DNA of 35,791 bases from a virus (taxonomy: Duplodnaviria > Heunggongvirae > Uroviricota > Caudoviricetes): the IMG/VR virus record IMGVR_UViG_2534682162_000012. One strand, 5' to 3'. Positions within the stretch are counted from its first letter, which is position 1; the number at the start of each line of letters is the position of its first letter. Shown piece after piece: positions 26,565 to 30,368 of this stretch. The notes under the pieces were generated by a model, which saw nothing but the letters and a program-made list of their open reading frames with translations, was not told the DNA's origin and made no database searches. The translations under genes and the position numbers were made by a program.

Positions 26565-27145
26565 GCGTTAGTTTCTCCACAGTCACGACACGCCACGGCG
26601 CCCGGAGCTGCACACTCGCGGGCGTCATTACTTTCTGAAATGCAAAAGATTTTGTAGACCAGTGCTGCATGCTCCTGCAGCTTCGAAATTGAGAGGTACA
26701 GCTCGTCGTTAATTGCTGTTTTCTCATGCGGTTCCACTACACCGTCTTCGATTGCTGAACGAATCTGTTTTGAATAACTGCCGATCTGTTCAATGACTTC
26801 CAGCAGACGCTGGTTAATATCGGCGTTGTCCACATCCTCGACGTCAGGAAGAGACACAAATACGCCATTTGCAGACTGCGCCACAGCATCAGCAATGAAG
26901 TGAGTGCCACCAGCACGCTGTAAAACCATTGCCCATCCCAGCGGGAAAATCTGATCGCCATCGGCACGAAGGCGGTTAAATAATGCGCTCTCTGTTACAT
27001 CCAGCCAGTCAGCAGCTTCAGCGTAACCCCCCGGCAACGCTGCGATAGTTTTTCTGACAGCTTTCACGTACCACTTAGGCTGTTTTTCTACTTTCCAGTG
27101 ATGCTTACCCACGGCTATCTCCTTAAAACTGTGGTTACTTTTCAT
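26561..27145 (-). CDS. Putative early regulatory protein (YmfL/CII-like)
   Basis: Start chosen at the internal ATG ([17 protein letters not shown]...) directly downstream of the Cro-like gene; function inferred from position only. Confidence 0.4.
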
Positions 27146-27383
27146 CTGATGAATCTTTAATCTTTTGAAAAATATCTGGACGTAATTTTTCTTTTGATAT
27201 GCCAGTGGTCTTTTCAATGAATATCGAGAGCTTTGCAGGGGGACGCTTTTCTCTGTTCAACCAGTTCCAGACATGTTGTTGCTTTACTAAATGACCGCTG
27301 CTGGCTGTGAGCTTCCGAGCCAATTCTGATTGACCACCAGCCAGAGCGATTGCCTCCGATAAGGCTAATTGCTCAGGTGTCAT
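27135..27383 (-). CDS. Cro-like HTH transcriptional regulator
   Basis: 82-aa ORF divergent from the repressor gene with an HTH-like region (ELARKLTASSGHLVKQQHVWNW); AGGAG RBS. Confidence 0.6.
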   Translation of the reverse strand: MTPEQLALSEAIALAGGQSELARKLTASSGHLVKQQHVWNWLNREKRPPAKLSIFIEKTTGISKEKLRPDIFQKIKDSSDEK

Positions 27384-27518
27384 AGCTTTCTCCTTTTTAG
27401 GTAGTTAAGTTGTTACGAGTTGCAAGAATACAACATTAACAACTTTTATCACAACTTTTAGGTGTTGGAAAGCTAAAACATAAAGTTGTAACCTCATCAA
27501 AAAAGAGAGGGATATGTT
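27384..27518. promoter_or_regulatory. OR-like operator/promoter region between cro and cI
   Basis: Heptamers AAGTTGT (27407, 27483) and ACAACTT (27439, 27451) arranged symmetrically as AAGTTGT-N25-ACAACTT-N5-ACAACTT-N25-AAGTTGT. Confidence 0.55.
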
Positions 27519-28205
27519 GTGAAAACACTGGCAGAACGATTAAAGATAGGTAGAGAGAAAGCTGGCATGAGCCAAGCTCAACTAGCTGAAAAAATTGGAC
27601 TTTCACAACAATCTGTAGCCAAAATAGAGAATGGCGAAACTCTACAACCGCGCAAAATTAAAGAAATTGCAAAAGTTTTAGGTGTATCACAAAAGTGGTT
27701 ACAACTTGGTATTGAAGACAACGCATCCATACCTGATCTTGTTGTAAAAGAAGCAGAAAGCACCGCATTAGACCCCGATATTTTCGTAAACATTCCTGTT
27801 TTAGATGTCGAGTTATCGGCAGGTAACGGATGTCTGGCTGAAATAGTTGAATCAGCTATTGACTGGTTTCCGTTAAGAAGAGCAGATTTGAGAAAATCTG
27901 GCGTATGTGCATCTAATGCCAAGATCGTAAAAATATGGGGGAACAGTTTATTACCGGTTCTCAATAATGGAGATCTTGTTGCCGTTGATATTTCTCAAAC
28001 CGTTCCTATTCGTGATGGCGATCTTTATGCCGTACGAGATGGTGTATTGCTAAGGGTTAAAATACTTATCAACTTACCTGACGGTGGCTTGATTCTTAGA
28101 AGCTTCAACAAAGATGAGTACCCAGATGAAATACTCACCTTTGAAGATAGACGAGCCAGAATTCATGTTATAGGTAGGGTATTCTGGTCATCGCGAACTT
28201 GGTAA
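27519..28205 (+). CDS. CI-like repressor (XRE HTH plus S24 LexA-like peptidase domain)
   Basis: GTG start with AAGAGAGGG RBS; N-terminal HTH (MSQAQLAEKIGLSQQSVAKIENGE) and C-terminal S24-like autocleavage domain with Ala-Gly-type cleavage region. Confidence 0.85.
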   Translation: MKTLAERLKIGREKAGMSQAQLAEKIGLSQQSVAKIENGETLQPRKIKEIAKVLGVSQKWLQLGIEDNASIPDLVVKEAESTALDPDIFVNIPVLDVELSAGNGCLAEIVESAIDWFPLRRADLRKSGVCASNAKIVKIWGNSLLPVLNNGDLVAVDISQTVPIRDGDLYAVRDGVLLRVKILINLPDGGLILRSFNKDEYPDEILTFEDRRARIHVIGRVFWSSRTW

Positions 28206-29078
28206 TGCATCGAAAAGCATTTCTTCAGAAATAATTTTAAGTTTTGCACCATTATCATCCCTATAAGATATAGCCTTTTCGATCTTCCTTCCGTGACTTG
28301 AGAATTTCCAATCACGGGAGGAAAGCGTCCCAATTACTAAAAAATCCAACTTTTGAGTAATTCCACTACTGATGTTCCCACCAGCATTTTTAATCAAATT
28401 TTCAACTACGGCTCTCTTTCCTGCAACAAAAGTGCCTGTAAGACAATAGGTTTTACCCTCTAACTCTATCGAAGCCCCTACATCAATAGGCAGCCTGGTC
28501 GCCAAACCATCCACCACCCCACTTTCCAAGTCACATCCTGTGAAGTCTACTAATGCCTTATGTAGAGTTAAACTCTCATCTTCAGTAATAACACCATCTT
28601 TAAGAATTTCCTTTACAAGTGCATAAAGTTTTTTTCCTGGGTAGTTGTTCTTCAAAGCTCCATTTTGCTCAAGCCACCAATTAAGATATCTTATTTCTTC
28701 TTGAGTTAAGTTCCGATCAGCAATTAATCCTTTACATAGTCCATTAAGTAAATGGACATCTACATCCTTGGAGTAAAAATCAATTTCAGGGATATCAAGA
28801 ATTTCCCTCTGTATTTGGAGAAGGCTATTTTTAAGGTCATCACGTTCTTCTGATGTGATTATTCCATCCGCAAGAATATCCGACACCCGTGCTGATAGAC
28901 TTTTTATAACTCCATTATTGATAATCTGCTTTGCTTCAAGTAACCATGTATCTAAGTAAAGAACCTCCTCTTCACGGACAACTCCATCTGCAATGATTCC
29001 ATCAATGATGCTAATCAAGTTAGCAAATAACTTGTCCCGGTTCTGTGTGTAATTAAAAGCGTAAAGCGCGTCTTCCAT
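28188..29078 (-). CDS. Tandem-repeat protein with C-terminal BRCT domain (296 aa), accessory
   Basis: Start at ATG 29078 (MEDALYAF...) with AAGGAGG RBS; four repeats of about 45 aa (DG(V/I)(V/I)..EE...L..WL); C-terminal GKTYCLTGTF...DFLVIG BRCT-like fold; AT-rich by eye; overlaps cI 3' end by 18 nt. Confidence 0.65.
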   Translation of the reverse strand: MEDALYAFNYTQNRDKLFANLISIIDGIIADGVVREEEVLYLDTWLLEAKQIINNGVIKSLSARVSDILADGIITSEERDDLKNSLLQIQREILDIPEIDFYSKDVDVHLLNGLCKGLIADRNLTQEEIRYLNWWLEQNGALKNNYPGKKLYALVKEILKDGVITEDESLTLHKALVDFTGCDLESGVVDGLATRLPIDVGASIELEGKTYCLTGTFVAGKRAVVENLIKNAGGNISSGITQKLDFLVIGTLSSRDWKFSSHGRKIEKAISYRDDNGAKLKIISEEMLFDALPSSR

Positions 29079-29135
29079 ACAACCTCCTTTTTTTGATAAT
29101 CCTTGCACTCCTTGGCTACTCGTTCAAACCACATA

Positions 29136-29200
29136 AAGTTGTTGACAACATTCAAAACCACAACTAAATTACAACTTAAAGGTGTTAAAACAACGAACAG
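29136..29200 (+). promoter_or_regulatory. OL-like operator with pL-like promoter
   Basis: Consensus -35 TTGACA (29142..29147), 17-nt spacer, -10 TAAATT (29165..29170); carries the same AAGTTGT and ACAACTT(A/T)(A/T)AGGTGTT motifs as the cro/cI intergenic region. Confidence 0.5.
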
Positions 29201-29280
29201 GCAGGACGCCCACGAAGTAGCCGCCGGTGGCGTATGAATGACCGGATGATTCGTTAAATACTATGTGTAAGAGAGCGCAA

Positions 29281-29484
29281 ATGAACCGTTATTTCACATG
29301 CTCGTTTTGTGGCGCAAACGAGCTGCAGGCAAAAAAAATCATCGCCAAAGGCGGAAAAGATGAAGTTGCTATCTGCTCTGAGTGCGTAGTCTTGTGTGTC
29401 GGGGCATTAATCAATATCAGCACAACTATTCAGTTCACACCAAATGAGAATGCGCCTTTAGATGCGCGGAAATCTGGAGGTTAA
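29281..29484 (+). CDS. Stand-alone ClpX-type C4 zinc-finger protein (67 aa)
   Basis: FTCSFCGANELQAKKIIAKGGKDEVAICSECVVLCVGAL aligns by eye with the ClpX N-terminal zinc-binding domain ([31 protein letters not shown]); first gene after the pL-like promoter. Confidence 0.6.
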   Translation: MNRYFTCSFCGANELQAKKIIAKGGKDEVAICSECVVLCVGALINISTTIQFTPNENAPLDARKSGG

Positions 29485-29492
29485 AGAACAAA

Positions 29493-29768
29493 ATGAAAGT
29501 CCAGATTTTAAACAATAACTGTGAAGTCGTTTGGTCATACGACATAGCCGCCCCTGTAGATCAGAGCGGCGATAGCTGGACCAATGGGAAACATCAGATT
29601 ATGGCTGGAGTTGTGTTCTCTTTACGCCGTGCTTTGGAACAGGCTGAAGTATTTCCATCAGACCCTGAATGGAAATGGCCTTTTTCTATTTGTCCAAATT
29701 CGGAGAGCACATTTCAGAAAATTGGTCAGAAAGTCGCACTCGAAGAGCATCAGCCAACTGTTTCCTGA
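29493..29768 (+). CDS. Hypothetical protein (91 aa)
   Basis: ATG with GGAGG RBS 9 nt after the zinc-finger gene stop; no recognised motif. Confidence 0.45.
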   Translation: MKVQILNNNCEVVWSYDIAAPVDQSGDSWTNGKHQIMAGVVFSLRRALEQAEVFPSDPEWKWPFSICPNSESTFQKIGQKVALEEHQPTVS

Positions 29769-29931: not shown

Positions 29932-30186
29932 TTGATTTTCCTTTTATGTATACGGGCTTAAAAGGATACCACCGAGCCTGAAGTGGTGAAAAGACAGGCA
30001 CATAACAGCTAAGTATTTTCAACCAAAGAGAATCCTTAGCGTTGTGGTGAATGCGGCTCAGCGCACGCGGGTTAAGGTTGAGGCTGACAGTCGACCTTCT
30101 GTGGATACCCACCCGTCTGGTGTGCAACCTTCGCCAGGCACCGGGAGGCACCCGGCACCACAACTTTATGCTGTGTGTAGTCCTGG

Positions 30187-30231
30187 CGGTACCAGTTTGT
30201 ACCCTTGCTTCCGGCTGGTACCGTCCTTTTT
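30187..30231 (+). terminator. Intrinsic terminator-like hairpin in the early-left operon
   Basis: Perfect 9-bp stem CGGTACCAG/CTGGTACCG (30187..30195, 30215..30223) with 19-nt loop, then TCC and TTTTT. Confidence 0.45.
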
Positions 30232-30368
30232 ACAAAACAGAGAAGAGCATCACCGGACGACGGGCTCATAACCCAATCCATCCGGGCGGCTGCTACCGCA
30301 GGTGTTCTTCTCTGTTTTGTGGAGAAACTAATCGGCCTTGCAGGGTCGATATGATGAGGAGCAGCAAA

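Follow-up and report, generated by a model that had tools for sequence, protein, structure and literature searches.

Probable right and left operators of a lambda-type switch, built on a 15-bp dyad, in an SfV/CPS-53-like Escherichia coli prophage

Short repeated words occur in two intergenic regions of this prophage, one between a cro-like gene and cI and the other upstream of the early-left operon. The question that they raise is whether both regions carry the operators of one repressor, and what that would mean for the BRCT-domain gene that lies between them. We analysed a window of 35,791 nt (the whole stretch of DNA under study), in which our gene calls agree with those of a preliminary description of the same DNA (Table 1). 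The cro-like gene and cI are divergent with 135 bp between them, as in lambdoid phages. We consider it likely that the two clusters of repeats are the right (OR) and left (OL) operators in an SfV/CPS-53-like E. coli prophage whose lysis/lysogeny switch is of the lambda type, with a 434-like CI acting on 15-bp dyads. As predicted from its sequence, the switch is an ordinary one of the textbook kind, and it is the immunity type that is new.

The recurring unit and its statistics

The preliminary description had reported AAGTTGT/ACAACTT heptamers in both regions, a longer ACAACTT..AGGTGTT block, and a symmetric AAGTTGT-N25-ACAACTT-N5-ACAACTT-N25-AAGTTGT array in OR. A motif search of both regions recovered the heptamers in OR and OL, and the spacing of the array was exactly as described. 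There are 14 heptamers in the window against 4.97 expected, far above chance (0/100 shuffles reach 14), and six of them lie in the two intergenic regions, at 27407(-), 27439(+), 27451(+), 27483(-), 29136(-) and 29171(+). The longer block was found at 27448-27466 and 29168-29186 (84% alike over 19 nt), and an exact 12-mer, ACATAAAGTTGT, is common to 27478 and 29131. While the spacing of the OR array held, its dyad symmetry did not: the orientations run < > > <, which rules out a single large palindrome. The heptamer was likewise not borne out as the functional unit. The unit that recurs symmetrically is a 15-bp dyad, ACAACTT-N-AAGTTGT, and by our reading of the sequence the N25-N5-N25 array combines two full dyads with two orphan half-sites.

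The dyad is strongly over-represented. With up to two mismatches, 5 sites were found in the window where 0.16 were expected, and with up to three mismatches 7 sites where 1.61 were expected. When the spacing of ACAAC...GTTGT pairs was analysed without prior assumption, the pairs were commonest at a total length of 15 bp, and there were none of 14 bp; pairs of 15 bp occur at 20 per kb in the operator regions versus 0.29 per kb in the background. A position weight matrix (PWM) built from relatives only was then scored over 35,777 window positions. Its four highest scores in the whole window (19.4-22.1 bits) are the four full dyads U4, U5, U6 and U9 of Table 1, whose second halves score 7.4-10.1 bits and are themselves conserved. 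Outside the operator clusters and a site at 30160 shared with SfV, the best score was 10.8 bits. That fifth good dyad (30160-30174, ACAACTTTATGCTGT) was rejected as an operator, as the identical 15-mer is present in the heteroimmune Shigella phage SfV, inside a shared STnc100-like element. Motif-like words within cI, at 27671-27685 (10.8 bits) and 27693-27707, were also set aside; they are conserved coding sequence, and one pair is wrongly oriented.

Predicted control regions at OR and OL

Start sites were guessed at 7 nt past the -10 element; the predicted positions are close to 27501 for PRM and 29092 for the BRCT gene, which would be used in the lysogen, and close to 27418 for PR and 29177 for PL, which would be used upon induction. 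The consensus TTGACA-N17-TAAATT promoter described earlier at OL was recovered with 10/12 positions matched, as the best promoter-like site within 27000-29600; its hexamers are conserved in relatives and its spacer is variable. PR, PRM and the BRCT-gene promoter all fall below the scan threshold of 9/12 in the window, and their proposed identities come from conservation in relatives. Relatives carry TTGTGA-N18-TATAAT in the place of the window's putative PR. For PRM, TTGGA(A/T) and TAnnnT are conserved in 11/11 relatives with a spacer of 18-19 nt. At the candidate BRCT-gene promoter, TTGATT-N17-AAnnAT is retained in 12/12 sequences compared, with a spacer that is free to vary and, in most, a TG upstream of the -10.

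Table 1. Genes, promoters and candidate operator sites of the immunity region (PR, PRM and the BRCT-gene promoter are inferred)
Feature	Position	Strand	Remarks
cro-like gene, 82 aa	27135..27383	-	first gene of early-right operon; YdaS-type HTH
U1, orphan half-site AAGTTGT	27407..27413	-	about +12 from putative PR start
PR (putative)	27425..27454	-	-35 TTGTGA (27454-27449), 18-nt spacer, -10 TATTCT (27430-27425)
U2, half-site ACAACAT	27430..27444	+	lambda OR1 position; centre at -19 of PR
U3, orphan half-site ACAACTT	27439..27445	+	in PR spacer; direct repeat, 12 bp from U4
U4, full dyad ACAACTTTTAGGTGT	27451..27465	+	OR2 equivalent; 2 mismatches; PWM rank 3
PRM (putative)	27465..27494	+	-35 TTGGAA (27465-27470), 18-nt spacer, -10 TAACCT (27489-27494)
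U5, full dyad AAAACATAAAGTTGT	27475..27489	+	OR3 equivalent; 2 mismatches; PWM rank 2
cI repressor gene, 228 aa	27519..28205	+	Pfam HTH_3 1.4e-15, Peptidase_S24 6e-15
BRCT-domain gene, 296 aa	28188..29078	-	convergent with cI; 3' ends overlap by 18 bp
BRCT-gene promoter (putative)	29099..29127	-	-35 TTGAAC (29127-29122), 17-nt spacer ending TGc, -10 AAGGAT (29104-29099)
U6, full dyad ACCACATAAAGTTGT	29128..29142	+	distal OL; PWM rank 4
PL, early-left promoter TTGACA-N17-TAAATT	29142..29170	+	10/12 positions matched
U8, orphan half-site ACAACTA	29160..29166	+	abuts PL -10
U9, full dyad ACAACTTAAAGGTGT	29171..29185	+	proximal OL; 1 mismatch; PWM rank 1

OR consists of two full dyads and three conserved half-sites over the predicted PR and PRM, where a classical lambdoid OR has three full sites. 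U4, which is kept in all relatives, is centred at -40 from PR and -43 from PRM; U5, also conserved, is centred at -19 of PRM, 24 bp from U4, and the two divergent start sites are 83 bp apart. The half-sites hold their positions relative to U4, with GTTGT at -38 in 10/11 relatives (U1) and ACAAC at -21 in 7/11 (U2) and at -12 in 9/11 (U3). What counts against an operator reading is that the PR core has half-sites only, with partner halves that score negative. The halves of the 15-mer at U1 score 12.0 and -14.0 bits, and the partner half, which extends over the cro ribosome-binding site, shows no conservation; those at U2 score 10.2 and -9.6 bits, the second half being poor. No third full dyad was found over PR when other spacings were tried, and no GTTGT follows the PR-side copies of ACAAC before 27483.

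At OL, the dyads at 29128 and 29171 bracket TTGACA-N17-TAAATT and form a second cluster of the same operator, as expected of a lambdoid phage. U9 is centred on the PL start site (+1). U6 is centred at -42 from PL and at -43 from the BRCT-gene promoter, which it abuts in a PRM-like geometry, and these divergent start sites are 85 bp apart. An ACAAC is found at +32 relative to U6 in 9/11 relatives (U8). A further word, U7 (29145, ACAACAT), was dropped as a site as it is not conserved among relatives.

Based on this arrangement, we predict that a CI dimer binds the 15-bp dyads, consensus ACAACTT-N-AAGTTGT. Bound to the dyad at 27451, which overlaps the PR -35 and abuts the PRM -35, it would repress PR and probably stimulate PRM, whose cI transcript is predicted to have a leader that carries a Shine-Dalgarno sequence. 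The dyad at 27475, over PRM, would turn PRM off at high repressor levels. The conserved half-sites at 27407, 27430 and 27439 over the PR core probably aid repression of PR, or serve Cro. On the left, the dyad at 29171 would place repressor on the PL start site, and the dyad at 29128 separates the PL -35 from that of the candidate BRCT-gene promoter, the two facing away from each other; OL therefore appears to be built as a second PR/PRM unit. An operator at about -42 that touches a weak -35, the mark of a PRM-type promoter, is seen at both PRM and the BRCT-gene promoter (both -43, with guessed starts), and activation of either by repressor occupancy is predicted from this geometry. A dyad centred at about -42 from PL could in principle have other effects on PL.

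Repressor type, the BRCT gene and alternative explanations

CI has an HTH_3 domain (residues 8-57) and a putative self-cleaving Peptidase_S24 domain (residues 94-222), with the full-length profile matched. Its best solved relative is the N-terminal domain of the 434 repressor (E 4.2e-13, ungapped alignment), with Q28, Q29, S30 and R43 kept. Q28 and Q29 are the 434 residues that recognise ACA within the half-site ACAA. The residue aligned with Gln33 is Lys in this CI (SQQSVAKIENG vs TQQSIEQLENG), and the operators are not the 14-bp ACAA-N6-TTGT of the 434 type. With its spacing of 15 bp versus 14 bp in 434, and Lys at residue 33, the Gln-Gln-Ser contact model is for this CI only an analogy. As far as can be judged from sequence, CI works like the 434 repressor but without 434 specificity. 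The cro-like protein (Pfam PF15943, E 7.8e-15; phrog_35 'transcriptional repressor'; RefSeq label 'transcriptional regulator') has a helix 3 that starts KQQ, and gave only a marginal match to solved structures (Cro protein 3bd1, E 0.084).

Conservation was examined in 11 non-redundant loci from about ten genera, with CI 58-85% identical. The absence of the motifs from phages with the same repressor had been named as the result that would speak against shared operators; the dyads are kept in 11/11 relatives at nearly constant offsets from the start of cI (close to -68 and -44 for OR, and close to +1609 and +1652 for OL), and in 11/11 loci the distal and proximal OL dyads begin 43 bp from each other. 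Positions 1 and 5 of the half-site are invariant in 96/96 halves, and flanks and promoter spacers diverge around the fixed dyads. At U9 the variant half lies on the opposite side in 4 relatives (ACACCTTAAAGTTGT); U6 is near-perfect in Proteus and Providencia (ACAACATAAAGTTGT) and takes a symmetrically changed form in Pantoea (ACCACTTAAAGTGGT).

The operators are also specific to the immunity type. Although kept in the 11 relatives of this cI, they are gone from heteroimmune SfV, whose DNA is homologous from window position 29183-29194 on, just past the proximal OL dyad. The motif is likewise absent at a locus with a 43%-identical cI and a different recognition helix. A 50%-identical cI with the helix SQQAINK (loci L014 and L015) keeps ACAACGTTATGTTGT upstream, with ACAAC-N5-GTTGT dyads, yet a BRCT gene and a YdaS-type cro are both missing from its neighbourhood. 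Dyad statistics, fixed positions, co-occurrence with repressor type and promoter overlap all argue for the proposal that the shared motif provides the OR and OL operators of one repressor type. A search of the phage database found no close relative of the immunity region, a 65-bp PL leader being the sole match, and a literature search for the motif returned nothing relevant. Presumably the phage is heteroimmune to sequenced phages, since its CI is at most 44.5% identical to that of any of them. The prophage type itself occurs in 48 of 5,426 complete E. coli genomes (about 1%) and in at least ten enterobacterial genera.

The BRCT gene is found with this cI in all of the relatives. Its product has a duplicated helical region at the N-terminus and a BRCT fold at the C-terminus, as in the family of phrog_3989 ('unknown function') and orf2 of Vibrio phage K139, and it weakly matches the PADLOC candidate PDC-S48. 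The K139 orf2 product is a full-length homologue (33% identity, E 3e-48), encoded directly after an unrelated cI. A literature search on BRCT genes in immunity regions, BRCT anti-phage systems and the function of K139 orf2 yielded nothing relevant. The suggestion that the gene sits inside the repressor-controlled interval holds for its location between cI and OL, but the gene is on the strand opposite to cI and PL and has its own putative promoter. Taken together, these analyses suggest that the left control region probably also drives the conserved BRCT gene, which is probably expressed in the lysogen with the help of CI.

Several other explanations of the repeats deserve consideration. The heptamer array could itself be the operator, its 7-bp words at N25-N5-N25 being bound by monomers or a large oligomer and the dyads being incidental. 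The four exact heptamers do occur at that spacing, pentamers at -38, -12, 0 and +38 are kept in 9/11 relatives, and orphan half-sites without a partner are clearly present; this reading is nonetheless unlikely, given an array without dyad symmetry, second halves that are conserved at all four full dyads, variant halves that swap sides or change symmetrically, an assumption-free spacing peak at 15 bp, and an OL that lacks the N25-N5-N25 arrangement. We think it similarly improbable that some other product of the module, be it Cro alone, the BRCT protein or the CII-like YmfL, is the main binder in place of CI. In known lambdoid phages Cro shares the operators of CI and does not replace CI there, and the L014 and L015 dyads, which lie upstream of cI without an adjacent BRCT gene or YdaS-type cro, point the same way, as do the 434-like QQS helix of CI, which fits an ACA-type half-site, and K139, which has a BRCT homologue without the motif. 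This is to be set against the finding that cro, cI and the BRCT gene occur together with the motif in nearly all relatives, the KQQ at the start of the Cro recognition helix, and the ability of RFC1/LigA-type BRCT domains to bind DNA (such structures were among the matches listed). Comparative data do not tell whether CI or Cro is the binder, since cI and cro are found together in every relative except one. That the repeats have no protein-binding role, being promoter look-alikes or leftovers of an intergenic duplication, is hardly credible: the dyads persist down to a CI identity of 58%, with neighbouring bases outside the promoters randomised, changes that are symmetric or swap sides leave the dyad intact, and the motif switches with repressor type in otherwise homologous phages. 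This stands despite the overlap of parts of the motif with promoter hexamers (TTGT in the PR -35; GTTGT then TGACA at PL) and a 20-nt arm common to OR and OL that could reflect duplication.

We can speculate, with some doubt, that OL is a second bidirectional switch, in which CI on 29128-29142 would act both ways, repressing PL jointly with the proximal dyad and activating the PRM-like BRCT-gene promoter. On this view cI and the BRCT gene would make up a two-gene lysogeny module, conserved from E. coli to Proteus and echoed by cI-orf2 of the unrelated phage K139, and the BRCT protein would have its role in the lysogen, perhaps as a sensor of DNA ends or DNA damage that tunes induction or blocks superinfecting phage. 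It is quite conceivable, if short of probable, that the BRCT-gene promoter is instead independent of CI or repressed by it, the distal dyad serving only cooperative PL repression with the proximal one. Activation is a prediction from geometry only, an extended -10 (TGn) could free the promoter from any need for an activator, and the 43 bp between the OL dyads, about four helical turns and exact in all relatives, would suit cooperative pairing across PL. Against this reading, the -35 lies right next to the dyad in a geometry that matches the predicted PRM to within 1 bp, the two arms (repeat I5) are 75% alike over 20 nt, and the K139 homologue lies in that record's annotated lysogenic operon. 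The slot between cI and OL also houses the lysogen-expressed rexAB in lambda.

These results predict an operator, and hence an immunity specificity, for a prophage type that, judged by comparison with the phage database, has no isolated phage representative. They point to a natural 15-bp variant of 434 recognition, with Gln-Gln-Ser kept and Gln33 changed to Lys, that would be useful for studying the evolution of spacing and specificity. They also tie a conserved, uncharacterised BRCT gene, probably under OL control, to repressor genes in two unrelated phage groups.

Comparison with known immunity regions

The immunity region of 434 comprises cI and cro with OR1-3 and OL1-3, made of 14-bp operators ACAA-N6-TTGT. 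The present region resembles it in a half-site that begins with ACAA, in the clustering of the same word on both sides of cI, in the S24 C-terminal domain, and in a CI N-terminal domain whose closest solved relative is that of 434, with Gln-Gln-Ser and the loop Arg retained. It departs from 434 in its 15-bp dyad, in a longer half-site (ACAACTT, with C5 invariant), in the Lys at residue 33 of the helix, in an OR of two full dyads and half-sites in place of three full sites, and in a Cro of the YdaS type rather than a 434-Cro paralogue. In lambda, OR2 lies at about -41/-42 from both promoters, whose starts are 82 bp apart. The prophage is similar to lambda in having its central operator about 40 bp upstream of both divergent starts, an operator over PRM at -19, and an OR1-equivalent position at -19 of PR. 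However, its operators are unrelated in sequence and length to the 17-bp operators of lambda, only a half-site occupies the OR1 position, and the predicted cI mRNA is leadered, whereas the lambda transcript is leaderless.

A non-essential gene between cI and OL is a feature shared with lambda rexAB, 434 hex and the cI-orf2-glo-int region of K139; one report describes 434 Hex as made in lysogens from the PRM transcript (PMC3564112). Unlike all three, the BRCT gene here is inverted and convergent with cI, with its own putative promoter sharing an OL operator, and the CI of K139 is unrelated to this CI. Shigella phage SfV and its relatives SfII, ST64B and mEp460 belong to the same genome type but to another immunity. 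SfV differs in its CI, which is a different protein, in its operators of GTAC-type repeats and in having no BRCT gene. The SfV group has in common with this prophage the arrangement cro - operators - cI - PL - early-left genes, and, as in this SfV group, a nearly identical PL leader of 60-70 bp directly follows OL.

A 15-bp dyad at both operator regions

Our analysis identifies the window as an E. coli prophage whose gene type is that of SfV/CPS-53. Of 5,426 complete E. coli genomes, 48 carry the 2.2 kb at 27100-29300 at 99.5-100% identity. RefSeq labels across it are YmfL, transcriptional regulator, XRE-family regulator, BRCT domain-containing protein and ClpX-type zinc-finger protein, and our own gene calls match this annotation. 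A preliminary description had claimed that an AAGTTGT/ACAACTT operator motif is shared by OR, the right operator region between cro and cI, and OL, the left operator region upstream of the early-left genes. All of the sequence features it described were found. The heptamer is enriched (14 copies versus 4.97 expected; 14 was reached by no shuffle), and six of these copies lie in the two intergenic regions with exactly the spacing described. The longer ACAACTT(T/A)(T/A)AGGTGTT block is common to 27451 and 29171, and TTGACA-N17-TAAATT at 29142-29170 is the top sigma-70-like site of the region. An exact 12-mer, ACATAAAGTTGT, is also common to 27478 and 29131.

Each of the four best heptamers is paired with a weaker inverted partner, thus forming a 15-bp dyad with the consensus ACAACTT-N-AAGTTGT: U4 and U5 at OR, U6 (distal) and U9 (proximal) at OL. 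Seven dyads were observed at ≤3 mismatches (1.61 expected) and five at ≤2 (0.16 expected). When ACAAC and GTTGT pairs with up to one mismatch were counted at any spacing across the operator regions of 11 loci, a sharp peak stood at 15 bp total length, with 20 per kb versus 0.29 per kb in the remainder of these loci; a second peak at 18 bp is a product of overlapping GTTGTTG/GTGTTGG strings. When all 15-mers of the window were scored with a weight matrix made from relatives only, window excluded, U4, U5, U6 and U9 took ranks 1-4 (19.4-22.1 bits), followed by a site at 30160 (16.3 bits), with all others at ≤10.8 bits. These statistics support the dyad, not the single heptamer, as the real unit.

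Genes, full dyads and inferred promoters of the operator interval
Feature	Coordinates	Strand	Sequence or description	In relatives
cro-like gene	27135-27383	-	YdaS-type HTH	
U4 dyad	27451-27465		ACAACTTTTAGGTGT	
U5 dyad	27475-27489		AAAACATAAAGTTGT	
cI	27519-28205	+	HTH_3 and Peptidase_S24 domains	
BRCT-domain gene	28188-29078	-	convergent with cI, 18 bp overlap	
U6 dyad	29128-29142		ACCACATAAAGTTGT	
U9 dyad	29171-29185		ACAACTTAAAGGTGT	
Early-left genes	from 29263	+	gene calls	
PR (early-right promoter, inferred)			TTGTGA-18-TATTCT	TATAAT in most
PRM (cI promoter, inferred)			TTGGAA-18-TAACCT	TAnnnT in 11/11
BRCT-gene promoter (inferred)			TTGAAC-17-AAGGAT, TGc before -10	TTGATT-17-AAnnAT in all

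Conservation of the dyad and its likely partner

The CI homologues make up one graded family, with identity falling from 93% to ~58%, in Escherichia, Salmonella, Citrobacter, Klebsiella, Kluyvera, Serratia, Hafnia, Cronobacter, Yersinia, Morganella, Proteus, Providencia and Pantoea. In the 11 non-redundant loci fetched for comparison, the gene order cro - cI - BRCT is invariant and the genes beyond it vary. The dyads lie at about -68, -44, +1609 and +1652 from the cI start; the OL pair is always 43 bp apart and the OR pair 24-25 bp. In MAFFT alignments the spacers were randomised and the dyads and promoter hexamers kept, as in a classical footprint. Among 96 half-sites, positions 1 (A) and 5 (C) are invariant, positions 2, 3 and 7 are kept at 86-88%, and the centre base is A or T. 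In U9 the variant half occupies the right side in the window (ACAACTTAAAGGTGT) but the left side in four relatives (ACACCTTAAAGTTGT), and U6 of the Pantoea locus is altered symmetrically in both halves (ACCACTTAAAGTGGT); these changes point to recognition of a dyad and not mere sequence inheritance. U6 is a near-perfect ACAACATAAAGTTGT in Proteus and Providencia. One record labelled Pseudomonas lundensis (JAWQUI010000002.1) carries the cro-cI-BRCT module with an OR almost identical to that of Serratia plymuthica, which hints at contamination, a wrong label or recent transfer.

Among solved structures, the closest relative of CI is the phage 434 repressor N-terminal domain (E 4.2e-13, ungapped alignment). 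The CI recognition helix, SQQSVAKIENG, aligns with TQQSIEQLENG of 434, and the loop Arg is likewise common to both. Gln28 and Gln29 of 434 are said, in work of Anderson, Ptashne and Harrison (1987) and of Aggarwal et al. (1988), to read the ACA of the half-site ACAA; a half-site starting ACAA would thus be expected for the CI helix. Unlike in 434, Gln33 is replaced by Lys, the half-site extends to the invariant C5 and the dyad measures 15 bp instead of 14 bp. CI therefore appears 434-like in action, without 434 specificity. The likely recognition helix of the YdaS-type Cro, at residues ~33-45, is KQQHVWNWLNR (KQQQVWNWL in relatives); its Gln-Gln start is common to CI and 434 Cro/CI, although Cro and CI are otherwise unrelated. 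This KQQ start fits a Cro that reads the same word. Against solved structures, Cro gave a single, marginal match, to an all-alpha Cro.

More distant loci bear on which protein goes with the dyad. The dyad is absent where cI is 43% identical and its recognition helix differs (AQSSIWK), whereas a 50%-identical cI with the helix SQQAINK keeps ACAACGTTATGTTGT upstream. The latter lies beside a Q-like gene and a RecQ gene, without a BRCT gene or a YdaS-type cro, and is the strongest evidence available for a link of the dyad to CI and not to Cro or the BRCT protein. DNA comparison with 50,697 phage records found no sharing of the immunity region; the sole match was 60-70 bp from 29183-29194, directly after U9, and identity to the closest phage CI is 44.5%. 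In SfV, the layout and the stretch downstream of U9 are the same, but CI is unrelated and the repeats differ. Taken together, the statistics, the phylogenetic footprinting, the co-variation with repressor type and the homology to a structurally understood repressor support the operator interpretation, and the sites on both sides of cI would be operators of a new immunity specificity in a textbook kind of system. Literature searches found no description of an ACAACTT-N-AAGTTGT operator, nor a function for the BRCT family.

Other motif-like sites were set aside as operators. The site at 30160-30174 is identical in SfV and lies within a shared STnc100-like element, and is therefore not immunity-specific. 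This element, a match to Rfam STnc100 (a gammaproteobacterial sRNA) at 30019-30234 (+; 39.5 bits, gathering score 47, E 3.3e-06), lies in the gap between early-left genes. ACAACAT at 29145 is not conserved. The cI stretch coding for KVLGVSQKWLQLG (27668-27707) holds AAAAGTTTTAGGTGT (10.8 bits) and AAGTGGT-T-ACAACTT; such words may be chance within a conserved coding stretch.

Promoter geometry and half-sites

The scan tool passes only PL, the early-left promoter; PR, PRM and the BRCT promoter were inferred from hexamers fixed amid variable spacers. With start sites assumed 7 nt downstream of the -10, on which all distances depend, the centre of U4 falls at -40 relative to PR and -43 relative to PRM, that of U5 at -19 relative to PRM, and that of half-site U2 at -19 relative to PR. 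At OL, the centre of U9 falls on +1 of PL, and that of U6 at -42 relative to PL and -43 relative to the BRCT promoter. The divergent starts would be separated by 83 bp at OR and by 85 bp at OL. In lambda, OR2 is centred about -41/-42 from PR and PRM, OR1 and OR3 near -17 to -19, with 82 bp between the starts; OR would therefore be a lambda-like switch in geometry. We infer that OL repeats the central part of this switch, with the BRCT promoter in the PRM position. Over 20 nt, the PRM-like arms at 27451-27470 and 29123-29142 match at 75%, and the two leaders have ATCAAAAAA(G)AG(A)GG in common.

Only two full dyads lie at OR. Over the PR core there are single half-sites, U1 (27407), U2 (27430) and U3 (27439), kept in 10/11, 7/11 and 9/11 relatives, whose partner halves score negative in the weight matrix; a fourth, U8 (29160), abuts the PL -10 in 9/11 relatives. 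These half-sites are far too frequent and too conserved for chance. CI dimers, each anchored on one good half, may fill them cooperatively, and centre-to-centre distances of 21 and 31 bp would set such dimers on one helix face. Alternatively, they may be sites preferred by Cro.

The PL leader GAACAGGCAGGACGCCCACGAAGTAGCCGCCGGTGGCGTATGAATGACCGGATGATTCG (29195-29253, +) begins directly after the proximal OL dyad and is 85-98% identical in heteroimmune phages (SfV, SfII, SfIV, ST64B, mEp460, Yersinia YeP1-3 and Citrobacter phiNP). The leader forms a 5-bp stem with a loop of 12 nt, enclosed by an outer CGAA/UUCG stem; covariation is seen at two stem pairs (GC/CG/UA and UA/AU/GC). No Rfam family matched 29195-29253; a role as a nut/put-like element, or as a leader RNA element of another kind, is possible.

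The BRCT gene between the operators

The BRCT gene lies on the strand opposite to both cI and PL, and is therefore outside the early-left operon and not co-transcribed with cI. The coding ends of cI and the BRCT gene overlap at 28188-28205 (by 9-18 bp in relatives, Pantoea excepted). No strong terminator was found there, so their transcripts should read antisense into each other. Within the N-terminal region of the BRCT protein, residues 6-100 and 103-200 duplicate one another; a helix-pair motif, (A/K)DG-x-(I/V)-x3-E-x3-L, occurs there four times, and this region has no Pfam match. Shorter homologues, covering the C-terminal 60%, lie close to integrase genes in Pseudomonas phages.

The gene sits beside this type of cI in all relatives, to as low as 58% identity; it is also found beside a Pantoea cI with a different C-terminal part. 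A full-length homologue (33% identity, E 3e-48) is orf2 of the P2-like Vibrio phage K139 (L022, 3453-4358), directly after a cI whose product is unrelated to the window CI; the K139 record annotates a promoter and start site of a lysogenic operon, cI-orf2-glo-int. Based on the conserved pairing with cI, the K139 operon and the promoter geometry, the BRCT gene is most likely expressed in the lysogen, possibly helped by CI at U6. We put forward the PRM-like OL promoter and the conserved cI-BRCT pairing as a hypothesis, drawn from geometry and conservation only, and consider it more interesting than the operator itself. In lambda and 434, the slot of the BRCT gene holds rexAB and hex, respectively (PMC3564112).
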